From NCBI RefSeq assembly GCF_044324875.1, contig NZ_CP172185.1: 64,000 nt of DNA; one strand, given 5' to 3'. Both the position numbers and the translations under genes were made by a program. Shown here in pieces: positions 11,817 to 56,986 of this stretch. The notes under the pieces are model-generated. The model saw only the letters and a list, made by a program, of their open reading frames with translations, searched no databases and was not told where the DNA came from. This stretch comes from Escherichia coli. GTDB lineage: Bacteria; Pseudomonadota; Gammaproteobacteria; Enterobacterales; Enterobacteriaceae. Each line of letters begins with the position of its first letter. Position 1 is the first letter of the stretch.

Positions 11817-11851
11817 AGCCCGGTATACAAGTGTATACCGGGCTTTTTTGA
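11817..11851. terminator. Bidirectional terminator between parE and the receptor gene
   Basis: agcccggtatac-aagt-gtataccgggct perfect hairpin followed by tttttt; the receptor stop codon (11852-11854) abuts it. Confidence 0.6.
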
Positions 11852-38914: not shown

Positions 38915-38949
38915 ATGCCCGGTTGCTTTTCACAACCGGGCATTTTTTT
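38915..38949. terminator. Bidirectional terminator between exbD and yghA
   Basis: atgcccggttg-cttttca-caaccgggcat hairpin followed by ttttttt. Confidence 0.6.
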
Positions 38950-42637: not shown

Positions 42638-42755
42638 TAGGTTTATCTCTTACGGGATTACGTCTTAAACAAGCATGAAAAAATAGCGTGCGCAAAAGTC
42701 GTTCTTTGCCTAAAATATCGCTATATATGGCAATATATAGCGAATGAGGTGAACG

Positions 42756-50713: not shown

Positions 50714-50917
50714 AGTGAGTTGCCTTCTCAGTGGTAGTGTTGAAGCAGTGTAGCAGGTCACTTGCTGTACAGAATGTGAATTTTTTAACCCTTTGCGCCA
50801 GCCGCTGCGATGAGGTGTATGATTAGTCTGACCTCTGTCCGGTTAATGTCGCTGAGCAGGTAATCAGAGCACAACAATTACGCCAACTGCTTAGGTTGTA
50901 TTGTTAAAGGTAAAGTG

Positions 50918-52777
50918 ATGAGCAAAGGAACGACCAGCCAGGATGCCCCGTTCGGGACATTATTGGGCTACGCCCCAGGTGGGGTAGCAATCTACTCTTC
51001 AGATTACAGTTCTCTCGATCCGCAGGAATACGAAGATGACGCCGTATTCCGTAGCTATATCGACGACGAATATATGGGCCACAAATGGCAATGCGTTGAA
51101 TTTGCTCGCCGTTTTCTCTTTCTGAATTACGGTGTGGTCTTTACTGACGTGGGTATGGCGTGGGAGATTTTCTCGCTGCGCTTCCTGCGTGAAGTGGTTA
51201 ATGACAACATCCTGCCATTGCAGGCATTTCCTAATGGCTCGCCGCGTGCACCGGTCGCGGGCGCGCTTCTTATCTGGGATAAAGGCGGTGAATTTAAAGA
51301 CACTGGCCATGTCGCCATCATTACCCAATTGCATGGCAACAAAGTCCGTATTGCGGAACAGAACGTGATTCATTCCCCGTTACCGCAAGGGCAACAGTGG
51401 ACACGCGAGCTGGAGATGGTGGTCGAAAACGGCTGCTATACCCTTAAAGACACGTTTGATGACACCACCATTCTGGGCTGGATGATCCAGACGGAAGATA
51501 CTGAATACAGCTTACCGCAGCCGGAAATTGCAGGCGAGCTGCTGAAAATCAGCGGAGCGCGCCTGGAAAACAAAGGTCAGTTTGACGGTAAATGGCTGGA
51601 TGAAAAAGATCCGCTACAAAACGCCTATGTGCAGGCCAACGGTCAGGTGATCAATCAGGATCCGTATCATTACTACACCATTACCGAGAGTGCCGAGCAG
51701 GAGCTGATTAAAGCCACCAACGAACTGCACCTGATGTATCTTCACGCCACCGACAAGGTGCTGAAAGATGACAACCTGCTGGCGCTGTTCGACATTCCGA
51801 AAATCCTTTGGCCACGTTTGCGTCTCTCCTGGCAGCGTCGCCGTCACCATATGATCACCGGTCGTATGGATTTCTGTATGGACGAACGTGGCCTGAAGGT
51901 CTACGAATACAACGCCGATTCCGCCTCCTGTCATACCGAAGCGGGCTTGATCCTCGAACGTTGGGCGGAGCAGGGCTATAAAGGCAACGGCTTCAATCCG
52001 GCGGAAGGGCTGATTAACGAACTGGCCGGTGCCTGGAAACACAGTCGTGCACGTCCGTTTGTCCATATCATGCAGGACAAAGATATCGAGGAAAACTATC
52101 ACGCGCAGTTTATGGAGCAGGCGCTGCACCAGGCGGGCTTTGAAACGCGTATCTTGCGCGGGCTGGATGAACTGGGCTGGGATGCTGCCGGGCAACTGAT
52201 TGATGGGGAAGGGCGACTGGTTAACTGCGTGTGGAAAACCTGGGCGTGGGAAACCGCGTTTGATCAGATTCGTGAAGTTAGCGACCGTGAGTTTGCTGCG
52301 GTGCCGATCCGTACCGGTCATCCGCAAAATGAAGTGCGTCTTATCGACGTATTGCTGCGCCCGGAAGTGCTGGTCTTTGAACCTCTGTGGACAGTGATCC
52401 CCGGCAACAAAGCGATTCTGCCGATCCTCTGGTCGCTGTTCCCGCACCATCGTTACCTGCTGGATACTGATTTCACTGTTAATGATGAACTGGTAAAAAC
52501 AGGTTACGCAGTGAAACCGATCGCCGGTCGCTGTGGCAGTAACATCGACCTCGTCAGCCATCATGAAGAGGTGCTGGACAAAACCAGCGGTAAATTTGCC
52601 GAGCAGAAAAACATCTATCAGCAACTGTGGTGTTTGCCGAAAGTGGACGGTAAATACATTCAGGTATGTACCTTCACCGTTGGCGGCAACTACGGTGGGA
52701 CGTGTTTGCGCGGTGATGAATCACTGGTCATTAAAAAAGAGAGTGATATTGAACCGTTAATTGTGGTGAAAGAGTAA
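50918..52777 (+). CDS. gss: Bifunctional glutathionylspermidine synthetase/amidase
   Basis: ORF 50915..52777 with start taken at MSKGTTSQDAPFG (619 aa); N-terminal CHAP amidase and C-terminal ATP-grasp synthetase. Confidence 0.95.
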   Translation: MSKGTTSQDAPFGTLLGYAPGGVAIYSSDYSSLDPQEYEDDAVFRSYIDDEYMGHKWQCVEFARRFLFLNYGVVFTDVGMAWEIFSLRFLREVVNDNILPLQAFPNGSPRAPVAGALLIWDKGGEFKDTGHVAIITQLHGNKVRIAEQNVIHSPLPQGQQWTRELEMVVENGCYTLKDTFDDTTILGWMIQTEDTEYSLPQPEIAGELLKISGARLENKGQFDGKWLDEKDPLQNAYVQANGQVINQDPYHYYTITESAEQELIKATNELHLMYLHATDKVLKDDNLLALFDIPKILWPRLRLSWQRRRHHMITGRMDFCMDERGLKVYEYNADSASCHTEAGLILERWAEQGYKGNGFNPAEGLINELAGAWKHSRARPFVHIMQDKDIEENYHAQFMEQALHQAGFETRILRGLDELGWDAAGQLIDGEGRLVNCVWKTWAWETAFDQIREVSDREFAAVPIRTGHPQNEVRLIDVLLRPEVLVFEPLWTVIPGNKAILPILWSLFPHHRYLLDTDFTVNDELVKTGYAVKPIAGRCGSNIDLVSHHEEVLDKTSGKFAEQKNIYQQLWCLPKVDGKYIQVCTFTVGGNYGGTCLRGDESLVIKKESDIEPLIVVKE

Positions 52778-52792
52778 TACATGTTGTAGCAA

Positions 52793-52826
52793 CCCTGCAC
52801 TGATTATGAAGAATAATCAGTGCAGG
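52793..52826 (+). terminator. Perfect 15-bp inverted repeat immediately downstream of gss
   Basis: ccctgcactgattat-gaag-ataatcagtgcaggg; the T-tract after it is weak (attaatcaaaat), so terminator function is uncertain. Confidence 0.45.
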
Positions 52827-53068
52827 GATTAATCAAAATATTCAATATTTATATATTCCAATATTTATTCATTTCATATGTGAATGTATTAACCAGTGGA
52901 ATACCTGTGTTTTGATTATTTCTAAAGGTTTTGAATGAATGCTTATTATCTGATACACAAGAAATAACACGCTTTTTATCGTTAAAAAATGATATTTCAC
53001 TTTGCCCACGCCGTTAAAGTCACTGATAATGCGTCCGTTCGTAAATTCAAAATGGCGTAATCTAATAT

Positions 53069-54568
53069 ATGCTAAATTTATTTGTTGGCCTTGATATATA
53101 CACGGGGCTTTTGTTATTACTTGCTCTGGCATTTGTGTTGTTCTACGAAGCAATCAATGGTTTTCATGATACGGCGAATGCGGTGGCAACCGTTATTTAT
53201 ACTCGTGCCATGCAACCACAACTTGCTGTGGTGATGGCGGCATTTTTTAACTTTTTTGGCGTATTGCTAGGCGGACTTAGCGTTGCCTATGCCATTGTCC
53301 ATATGTTGCCAACCGATTTGTTGCTGAATATGGGGTCAACTCACGGCCTGGCGATGGTCTTTTCCATGCTGCTGGCGGCGATTATCTGGAACCTGGGAAC
53401 GTGGTTCTTTGGTTTACCGGCCTCCAGTTCGCATACCTTGATTGGTGCGATTATCGGCATCGGTTTAACCAACGCGCTGTTAACCGGCTCATCGGTGATG
53501 GATGCGTTAAACCTGCGTGAAGTGACCAAAATTTTCTCCTCGCTGATTGTTTCCCCTATCGTCGGCCTGGTCATTGCGGGAGGTCTGATATTCCTGCTGC
53601 GCCGCTACTGGAGCGGGACGAAAAAGCGTGACCGTATTCACCGCATTCCGGAAGATCGCAAAAAGAAAAAAGGCAAACGTAAGCCACCATTCTGGACGCG
53701 TATTGCGCTGATTGTTTCCGCTGCGGGCGTGGCGTTTTCGCACGGCGCGAACGACGGGCAGAAAGGGATCGGCCTGGTGATGCTGGTACTGGTGGGGATT
53801 GCTCCTGCTGGTTTCGTCGTCAATATGAATGCGTCCGGCTATGAAATTACCCGTACCCGCGATGCCGTCACCAACTTTGAACACTATCTGCAACAGCATC
53901 CTGAACTGCCGCAGAAGTTAATTGCGATGGAACCTCCATTGCCTGCGGCATCGACTGATGGCACGCAAGTAACGGAGTTTCATTGTCATCCGGCAAATAC
54001 CTTTGATGCGATTGCGCGCGTTAAAACGATGTTGCCAGGTAATATGGAAAGCTACGAGCCGTTAAGCGTGAGTCAGCGCAGCCAGCTGCGCCGCATTATG
54101 CTGTGCATCTCTGATACCTCTGCGAAGCTGGCGAAACTGCCAGGCGTCAGTAAAGAAGATCAGAACCTGCTGAAAAAACTGCGCAGCGATATGTTAAGCA
54201 CCATTGAGTACGCTCCGGTGTGGATCATCATGGCGGTAGCACTGGCGCTCGGCATTGGTACCATGATTGGCTGGCGTCGTGTAGCGATGACCATCGGTGA
54301 GAAGATTGGTAAGCGCGGCATGACGTATGCGCAAGGGATGGCGGCGCAGATGACGGCGGCGGTATCTATCGGCCTTGCCAGTTATATTGGGATGCCTGTT
54401 TCCACAACACACGTCCTCTCGTCTGCGGTAGCAGGGACGATGGTGGTGGACGGCGGTGGGTTACAGCGTAAAACGGTAACCAGCATCCTGATGGCGTGGG
54501 TGTTTACTTTACCGGCGGCGATTTTTCTGTCTGGTGGGTTGTACTGGATAGCATTGCAGTTGATTTAA
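53069..54568 (+). CDS. pitB: Low-affinity inorganic phosphate transporter (PiT family)
   Basis: 499-aa polytopic membrane ORF with PiT-family motifs (GANDGQKG); preceded by an AT-rich upstream region. Confidence 0.9.
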
Positions 54569-55482: not shown

Positions 55483-56196
55483 GTGAATCAACGTAATATG
55501 TCAATAATTAATTCCACGCCAGTGCGTGTTATTGCCATTGTAGGATGTGATGGTTCAGGTAAATCGACCCTCACGGCAAGCCTGGTAAATGAACTGGCAG
55601 CAAGAATGCCAACAGAACACATTTATCTCGGGCAATCGTCCGGGCGAATTGGCGAATGGATTTCACAGCTCCCTGTTATTGGCGCACCTTTTGGGCGTTA
55701 TCTGCGAAGTAAAGCGGCACATGTGCACGAAAAGCCCTCAACACCGCCTGGCAATATTACTGCGCTGGTTATCTATCTGCTTTCCTGCTGGCGGGCGTAT
55801 AAGTTTCGCAAAATGTTGTGTAAAAGCCAGCAAGGCTATCTGCTCATCACCGACCGCTACCCGCAGGTTGAAGTGCCGGGTTTTCGCTTTGATGGCCCGC
55901 AATTGGCAAAAACCACGGGCGGTAACGGTTGGATAAAAATGTTAAGGCAGCGCGAGCTGAAGCTGTACCAATGGATGGCGTCTTATTTGCCCGTATTGTT
56001 GATTCGTCTTGGCATTGATGAACAAACGGCGTTTGCGCGTAAACCTGACCACCAACTGGCGGCGTTACAGGAAAAAATCGCCGTTACGCCGCAACTGACA
56101 TTCAATGGCGCAAAGATCCTTGAACTGGATGGTCGGCAACCAGCCGATGAAATTATGCAAGCGTCACTACGCGCAATTCACGCCGCGCTTTCCTGA
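55483..56196 (+). CDS. yghS: P-loop NTPase of unknown function YghS
   Basis: 237-aa ORF with Walker A (GCDGSGKST) and ITDRYPQ; paralog of yghT and yghR. Confidence 0.8.
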   Translation: MNQRNMSIINSTPVRVIAIVGCDGSGKSTLTASLVNELAARMPTEHIYLGQSSGRIGEWISQLPVIGAPFGRYLRSKAAHVHEKPSTPPGNITALVIYLLSCWRAYKFRKMLCKSQQGYLLITDRYPQVEVPGFRFDGPQLAKTTGGNGWIKMLRQRELKLYQWMASYLPVLLIRLGIDEQTAFARKPDHQLAALQEKIAVTPQLTFNGAKILELDGRQPADEIMQASLRAIHAALS

Positions 56197-56227: not shown

Positions 56228-56986
56228 ATGGATGCACTACAAACACAAACTGTTAATAGTACAACCGCGCCGCAGCCCAACTACATTCCGGGGCTGATTG
56301 CGGTGGTCGGGTGTGATGGCACCGGTAAATCCACGCTGACCACCGACCTGGTGAAATCGCTGCAACAACACTGGCAAACCGAGCGCCGCTATCTGGGGCT
56401 GCTCTCCGGCGAAGACGGCGACAAAATCAAACGATTGCCGTTGGTTGGCGTCTGGCTGGAACGGCGACTGGCGGCCAAATCCTCGAAAACCCAAAGCATG
56501 AAAACCAAATCTCCAGCGCTATGGGCGGCGGTGATTATGTACTGCTTCTCGCTGCGAAGAATGGCGAATCTACGCAAGGTTCAGCGACTGGCGCAAAGTG
56601 GCGTTCTGGTGGTCAGCGATCGCTTCCCGCAGGCTGAAATTTCGGGCTTTTATTATGACGGACCGGGGATCGGCGTCGAACGTGCGACCGGGAAAATCAG
56701 CATGTTTCTGGCGCAGCGCGAACGGCGTTTATACCAAAAAATGGCGCAATACCGTCCTGAATTAATCATTCGTTTGGGGATTGATATTGATACTGCCATC
56801 TCCCGCAAGCCTGACCATGACTATGCCGAGCTGCAGGACAAAATCGGCGTCATGTCGACGATTGGCTATAACGGCACAAAAATTCTTGAGATTGATTCCA
56901 GAGCGCCCTACAGCGAAGTGCTGGAACAGGCACAGAAGGCGGTTTCTCTGGTTGCCATCGTTTCTGACCGCCGAAGTTTAACTTAA
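56228..56986 (+). CDS. yghR: P-loop NTPase of unknown function YghR
   Basis: 252-aa ORF with Walker A (GCDGTGKST) and VSDRFPQ; third paralog. Confidence 0.8.
   Translation: MDALQTQTVNSTTAPQPNYIPGLIAVVGCDGTGKSTLTTDLVKSLQQHWQTERRYLGLLSGEDGDKIKRLPLVGVWLERRLAAKSSKTQSMKTKSPALWAAVIMYCFSLRRMANLRKVQRLAQSGVLVVSDRFPQAEISGFYYDGPGIGVERATGKISMFLAQRERRLYQKMAQYRPELIIRLGIDIDTAISRKPDHDYAELQDKIGVMSTIGYNGTKILEIDSRAPYSEVLEQAQKAVSLVAIVSDRRSLT

Follow-up and report, generated by a model that had tools for sequence, protein, structure and literature searches.

A single-copy, U-poor stem-loop very probably defines the 3' end of the gss mRNA of Escherichia coli

The perfect palindrome that follows gss in the Escherichia coli DNA analysed here (a stretch of 64 kb, referred to as the window) is very probably the hairpin that defines the 3' end of the gss mRNA. 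It would act as a U-poor protective 3' stem-loop, and on balance we favour, with reservation, an end made mainly by Rho and subsequent trimming, possibly in a mixed fashion. In the proposed mechanism, the palindrome would form the final structured part of the gss transcript, folding into a 15-bp stem-loop of about -25 kcal/mol. RNA polymerase would be stopped at or beyond this hairpin, in the untranslated, G-free and AT-rich spacer before pitB, mainly through the action of Rho and possibly with some inefficient release induced by the hairpin. The 3' tail would then be shortened by PNPase and RNase II as far as the stem, which blocks them, leaving a stabilised gss mRNA, and through the same events the pitB control region would be spared transcription from gss.

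Genomic context and structure of the hairpin

The hairpin lies between two genes of the same orientation. The first one, gss (50918-52777, + strand), encodes a bifunctional glutathionylspermidine amidase/synthase and was assigned by the NCBIfam equivalog NF007801 (1282 bits) and by the RefSeq annotation of the orthologous locus. The next gene, pitB (53069-54568, + strand), encodes a low-affinity phosphate transporter and was assigned by a match to the PitA/PitB family and by its RefSeq name. The true start of gss is the ATG at 50918 (MSKGTTSQ...), adjacent to the GTG at 50915 of the mechanical ORF list, and the NF007801 profile aligns from residue 2 of the GTG-started ORF. The stop codon TAA (52775-52777) is separated from the stem by a spacer of 15 nt (TACATGTTGTAGCAA, 52778-52792, + strand), which has no A-tract and is nearly invariant among E. 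coli.

The 5' arm of the stem (CCCTGCACTGATTAT, 52793-52807) and its 3' arm (ATAATCAGTGCAGGG, 52813-52827), both given on the + strand, were delimited by repeat search, RNA folding and covariation, and they enclose a loop of 5 nt, GAAGA (52808-52812, + strand), given by the repeat search and the folding. Each arm is 15 nt long and the inverted-repeat search found them 100% complementary; the perfect 15-bp inverted repeat that an earlier note on this DNA had described directly after gss is therefore real. Its start had been correctly placed at 52793, and its end, which had been set at 52826, is to be moved one base further, to 52827. The stem stands on a foot of five C/G-rich base pairs (CCCUG/CAGGG). 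Folded as RNA, the isolated 35-nt hairpin reaches -25.3 kcal/mol and the 81-nt region -27.4 kcal/mol, with a z-score of -6.7 as compared with 200 shuffles of the sense strand. In the window, no other perfect inverted repeat of hairpin type is as long. Arms of 15 nt or more did not occur in any of 200 simulations of the window with a first-order Markov model, in which the mean count of arms of 13 nt or more was 0.015.

Other long hairpins of the window offer internal contrasts to this U-poor one. Those at 11817-11844 and 38915-38943, both perfect, are preceded by an A-tract and followed by TTTTT(T), and are canonical intrinsic terminators, probably working in both directions. The long perfect hairpin at 21-49 has an A-tract on its upstream side only, which makes it a terminator acting on the minus strand. 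At 42718-42743, another perfect inverted repeat, AT-rich and of 11 bp (TCGCTATATAT-GGCA-ATATATAGCGA), is located directly before atgaggtgaacgatg; devoid of a U-tract, it is not obviously a terminator and could be an operator or a leader structure of the gene cluster that extends from about 43232.

Directly after the gss hairpin, the GC content drops to 24-25%, in agreement with the earlier placing of the palindrome at the edge of the AT-rich region before pitB. The stretch from 52828 to 52878 (+ strand) is free of G and AT-rich, and from its composition it could be a Rho loading region, possible but weak. This AT-rich spacer also contains a second, imperfect inverted repeat (52832-52877, with arms of 18 nt that are 72% complementary), which is probably an effect of composition.

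Mapped 3' end of the gss mRNA

The earlier note had considered that a search for other copies of the palindrome and the mapping of the 3' end of the gss transcript would tell a simple terminator from more unusual readings, a single-copy palindrome with the transcript ending right after it speaking for the former. Such an end has already been published. From three datasets, obtained with K-12 and BW25113, Bar et al. 2023 (PMC10687069, Supplementary Data 2-4) report a gss 3' terminus termed 'primary', which lies on the minus strand of NC_000913.3: in the LB RNAtag-seq data of the same authors (peak 3136604-3136612, dominant position 3136606, R 0.966), in the RNAtag-seq data of Barsheshet (peak 3136604-3136613, dominant position 3136606, R 0.911) and in the re-analysed term-seq data of Dar and Sorek for BW25113 (peak 3136604-3136613, dominant position 3136605, R 0.667, with p = 0, 1 and 0 in the three replicates). 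The K-12 allele of the hairpin is printed in the same table, with a free energy of -25.9 kcal/mol; the longest run of U given there is 3.

These positions were transferred to the window in two ways, firstly through the printed sequence windows, calibrated on the thrL and satP rows, and secondly through the coordinates given in the table for the gss CDS (3136663-3138522). Both transfers place the dominant end on the C of GGGG-AUUAAUC. Position 3136606 thus corresponds to 52834 of the window and the term-seq position 3136605 to 52835, that is 7-8 nt after the stem and within the U-poor tail AUUAAUCA (52828-52835, + strand). Since the mapped end is in gss sense, and no antisense terminus is listed in the searched parts of the tables of PMC10687069, the functional strand is that of the gss-sense RNA. 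The density of read starts on gss is low in the same data.

The long perfect duplex between two co-oriented genes could also be taken for an endonuclease processing site, at which RNase III or RNase E would split a gss-pitB co-transcript, but this reading is very unlikely, the mapped end being located 7-8 nt 3' of an intact stem and not within it. Typical RNase III substrates extend over about two helical turns, and the 15-bp stem is below this length; RNase III was set aside as unlikely on account of this length and of an end lying outside the intact stem. It also speaks against processing that the searched parts of the tables of PMC10687069 contain neither a terminus linked to pitB nor a downstream fragment. 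The RNase processing site suggested in the earlier note consequently does not hold as an endonuclease site and survives in a more modest form, in which the stem halts 3'-to-5' exonucleases; such a role is known and common, and it is most likely the one played by this hairpin.

With its 3' boundary at this position, the gss transcription unit is fixed at its end, and gss and pitB form separate units.

A single copy at a constant site

Over 401 bp, the window shares 99.8% identity with E. coli strain CFSAN018748. A 45-nt probe over the hairpin was searched in complete E. coli genomes (n = 5426) and found it in 5402 of them at one place per genome, which was the gss-pitB spacer in every case; where two were counted per genome, the palindrome appears to have matched itself on both strands. 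In the 64-kb window, no second copy was detected beyond chance with up to 3 mismatches. No true plasmid copy was found in PLSDB, where the four matches correspond to three multi-megabase records and one record of 354 kb; the three former, of 4.8-4.9 Mb, are evidently full-size E. coli chromosomes labelled as plasmids, and the matches they contain are therefore no sign of plasmid carriage. Nor was there a real phage copy, the sole match having an E-value of 0.8. A permissive scan of 52300-53300 against Rfam 15 yielded only unrelated matches below threshold (e.g. rli38, with 28.7 bits for a gathering score of 49). The copy search proposed in the earlier note thus gives, like the mapped end, the outcome that the note had named as speaking against its unusual readings.

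These results bear directly on the possibility, also raised beforehand, that the palindrome is the remnant of a small mobile element or, more generally, a member of a dispersed or mobile palindromic family of the REP/BIME or MITE type. It sits in an intergenic region, and REP-like sequences do occur after gss in some Kluyvera-like genomes. However, the multiple copies expected of such repeats were not found, flanking direct repeats are absent and there is no likeness to the REP consensus. The single copy at a constant site, always the gss-pitB junction, and the absence of real plasmid or phage copies lead us to reject this reading, to which we leave next to no probability.

Insertion sequences were encountered at the locus in two diarrhoeal isolates, both of which have lost pitB. 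In strain 360D-1, an IS1 end (GGTAATGACTCC...) starts within the right arm of the hairpin, after ATAATCAG (around 52820 of the window), and in strain E70, IS1 cuts off the last gss codons (around 52768-52777 of the window). The right-hand IS1 junction looks alike in the two strains, and IS1 is followed in both by a truncated and then an intact gene of the nucleoside/nucleotide-kinase family, which by their size and order appear to correspond to the window ORFs 55483-56196 and 56228-56986. The whole arrangement has the appearance of adjacent deletions mediated by IS1, about 2.9 kb in size and differing at their left ends. In another strain, E. coli O157:H7 7.1_Anguil, pitB is annotated as a pseudogene lacking its C-terminus; the O157 allele of the hairpin has two G-U changes.

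Conservation and compensatory changes

The hairpin is conserved across the genus Escherichia. Among 80 loci, the gss-pitB junction with a homologous hairpin was recovered in all four of the other Escherichia lineages, namely E. albertii, E. whittamii and two further species, which keep the stem, and in none of the other genera. The loop is CAAAA in E. whittamii and is lengthened in E. albertii.

Within E. coli, the sequence of the window represents a rare allele, present in 24 genomes and carrying a restored U4-A pair. The K-12 type (CCCCGTAC.../...GTACGGGG) and the window type (CCCTGCAC.../...GTGCAGGG) are distinguished by two double changes that preserve pairing, and the path between them (U6-A, C6.A, C6-G, then C4-G, C4.A, U4-A) can be followed step by step among sequenced E. 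coli. The mismatch intermediate C6.A occurs in strain C4 and the intermediate C4.A in strain 1190 and others, and the perfect middle state CCCCGCAC/GTGCGGGG, in which the C6-G pair is restored, was predicted and then found at 100% identity in 116 genomes. With all five states of this two-pair switch present in E. coli, the stepwise compensation of a 3' stem-loop can be cleanly followed at the level of the population; the series is a neat illustration and no new kind of thing.

An additional compensation, from A7-U to G7-C, was observed in E. whittamii, bringing the symmetric double substitutions to stem positions 4, 6 and 7, i.e. three pairs changed on both sides. One-sided changes have also been fixed in large lineages, G10.U in BL21 and both U1.G and U12.G in O157:H7 (about 1118 genomes for the BL21 and O157 types together), and E. 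albertii has the one-sided change U9.G; all of these fixed one-sided changes form G-U pairs in the gss-sense RNA. Across 10 distinct Escherichia haplotypes, pairing is found in 94.7% of the cells as against 26-47% in slid registers, four stem pairs vary by G-U changes only and the covariation score lies above those of all 500 shuffles; the haplotypes being few and closely related, this score is supportive and does not amount to a formal proof. These comparisons of sequences indicate that selection acts on the base pairing of the hairpin and not on base identity.

We also considered reading the functional strand from the counts of G-U versus C-A pairs, and dropped this approach, as the mismatch intermediates are G-U pairs on the - strand and the counts are 4-5 versus 2. 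The proportion of paired cells is 94.7% on the + strand versus about 92.7% on the - strand, the latter value coming from a hand count. With wobble counts thus indecisive, the assignment of the strand rests on the mapped RNA end.

The pattern of substitutions also weighs on the protein-binding palindrome of the earlier note, according to which a dimeric regulator would bind the DNA, for example at an operator on the upstream edge of the pitB control region. Perfect dyad symmetry beside an AT-rich promoter region is what such a site would offer, and the inner part of the palindrome, ACTGATTAT/ATAATCAGT, is nearly invariant in E. coli. Nevertheless, base identity is not conserved in both half-sites: the double substitutions at positions 4, 6 and 7 maintain pairing while altering both half-sites within one species, and the one-sided inner-stem changes fixed in the BL21 and O157 types are all G-U in the gss-sense RNA. 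Moreover, the site is part of the gss transcript as mapped, with the pitB start codon about 240 bp further downstream, and no match to a known motif was established. Compared by hand with the Fur box, the inner palindrome agrees at 10 of 19 positions, and this candidate was set aside. As it is pairing that has been conserved through compensatory changes, and not base identity, the operator reading is rejected and retains only a very small probability.

Tail sequence and possible direct release of RNA polymerase

The hairpin shares two features with canonical intrinsic terminators, a stable GC-rich stem-loop in the RNA (15 bp, -25.3 kcal/mol) and an RNA 3' end within 7-9 nt after the stem (52834/52835). 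It does not have the third one, a U-rich tract of 7-8 nt directly 3' of the stem. The tail ATTAATCAAAATATT has only 3 U in its first 8 nt and no U run longer than 2, with one G/C in 8 (7/8 A/U). By a TransTermHP-type formula, the tail scores -2.50, at the default TransTermHP limit, as compared with -5.1 to -5.45 for the canonical terminators that follow gss in other genera. A consensus promoter/terminator scan made no call at the hairpin, and no A-tract exists in the 15 nt before the stem. The earlier remarks that the T-tract is weak, and that a long stem combined with such a tract departs from the textbook intrinsic terminator, are thus well founded.

Direct release is nevertheless an alternative to be weighed for the making of the end. 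A very stable GC-based hairpin, together with the A/U-rich 8-nt hybrid formed by AUUAAUCA, might release RNA polymerase without a true U-tract and independently of Rho, a possibility that we regard as real although rather unlikely. The tail has a single G/C in 8 and a score at the usual prediction limit, the five C/G-rich base pairs lie at the foot of the stem, and coverage falls sharply at the site (R 0.91-0.97). The 3' end is located at the classic distance from the stem, and this distance of 7-8 nt, together with an A/U-rich tail giving a weak RNA-DNA hybrid, is also what a weak intrinsic terminator would give. True intrinsic terminators are moreover found at the equivalent position after gss in many other genera. 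Against direct release stand the shortage of U in the tail, the missing upstream A-tract and the silence of the consensus scan, as well as the homologous hairpins of the four other Escherichia lineages. In these, the stem is maintained next to unrelated, non-conserved tails that have only 1-2 U in 8 and no U-tract, the one of E. albertii (AGCAUGUC) being GC-rich. Since the stem is kept while the tails differ and are U-poor, the conserved function does not need a U-tract, and among the comparative arguments this one from the genus is the strongest.

Beyond the genus, a strong hairpin is present within 110 nt after gss in 71 of 79 Enterobacteriaceae loci, some of these hairpins being canonical and many others U-poor or REP-like. 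In at least 18 of these loci (e.g. in Enterobacter, Citrobacter and Lelliottia), the hairpin is followed by 5 or more U in 8, a lower bound because the script misses some canonical terminators in which the A-tract and the U-tract are paired with each other. Because 71 of the 79 loci carry a hairpin of varying type, a 3' hairpin is a constant need of gss and its type is interchangeable. This mix of types agrees with the published idea that the two types of terminators interconvert easily. In three loci of Kluyvera and related genomes, the first ~90 nt after gss contain REP-like palindromes (GCCGGATAAGGCG...CGCCTTATCCGGCCTAC) and no private hairpin, so that the same requirement at the 3' end is solved differently there.

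Rho and trimming as the preferred route to the 3' end

In E. coli, Rho-terminated transcripts have precise ends directly after stable stem-loops that lack a U-tract and an upstream A-tract; such ends show more C than G downstream and are made by PNPase/RNase II trimming, and Rho dependence is more frequent among genes of weak expression (Dar and Sorek 2018, PMC6061677). The gss mRNA likewise has a precise end directly after a stable stem-loop devoid of both tracts, and the fact that U-poor stem-loop ends are characteristic of Rho-dependent transcripts in this species counts against direct release (PMC6061677). From this likeness we infer the route of Rho and trimming, rather than direct release, for gss.

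The sequence downstream of the hairpin is consistent with Rho in one respect: its first 51 nt comprise 6 C and no G, with spaced UC/CC dinucleotides. At only ~12% C, however, this stretch is a poor rut site by usual standards, and the surplus of C over G is lost beyond ~60 nt downstream. No Rho region is recorded for the 3' end of gss by Adams et al. 2021, as would be expected if RNA polymerase were released without Rho, and the curated term-seq list of that study contains no gss terminus, gss expression being low. Because gss is weakly expressed, its absence from these lists is weak evidence against Rho. The TERMITe supplements do not mention gss, and a full-text literature search combining gss, pitB and terminator found nothing.

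Given its genus-wide upkeep through compensatory changes without the gain of a U-tract in any lineage, the hairpin might have a further role beyond that of an exonuclease block. It might be a docking site for a 3'-UTR protein of the ProQ type, an insulator setting the entry of gss transcription into the silenced AT-rich promoter region of pitB, or an evolutionarily stable form midway between Rho-dependent and intrinsic termination, to all of which together we attach a slim chance. As to the preferred route through Rho and trimming, the locus, with its single copy, lends itself to asking whether U-less hairpins at transcript ends cause termination on their own or only shield ends produced by Rho.

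Comparison with known systems

The gss hairpin is an ordinary object, single-copy, already contained in published 3'-end catalogues and belonging to a well-described class, and it has little import beyond annotation. With canonical intrinsic terminators, it shares a GC-rich foot located soon after the stop codon and a 3' end 7-8 nt past the stem. It differs from them in that they have both a U-rich tract of 7-8 nt and an A-tract, whereas the gss hairpin and its congeneric homologues have no U-tract. The REP/BIME elements that stabilise mRNAs at their 3' side are, like it, extragenic palindromes of the 3'-UTR able to block 3' exonucleases, but they constitute a repeated family, whereas the gss hairpin is single-copy and of unrelated sequence. 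The class of ends described by Dar and Sorek, whose term-seq data contain the gss terminus, resembles it in the stable stem-loop before a precise end, the lack of U- and A-tracts, the weak expression and, over the first 51 nt downstream, the excess of C over G. Rho dependence and trimming were demonstrated for that class and would apply to gss by analogy, the gss downstream region being unusually poor in C and its stem, with 15 perfect base pairs, standing at the long end for such protective elements.
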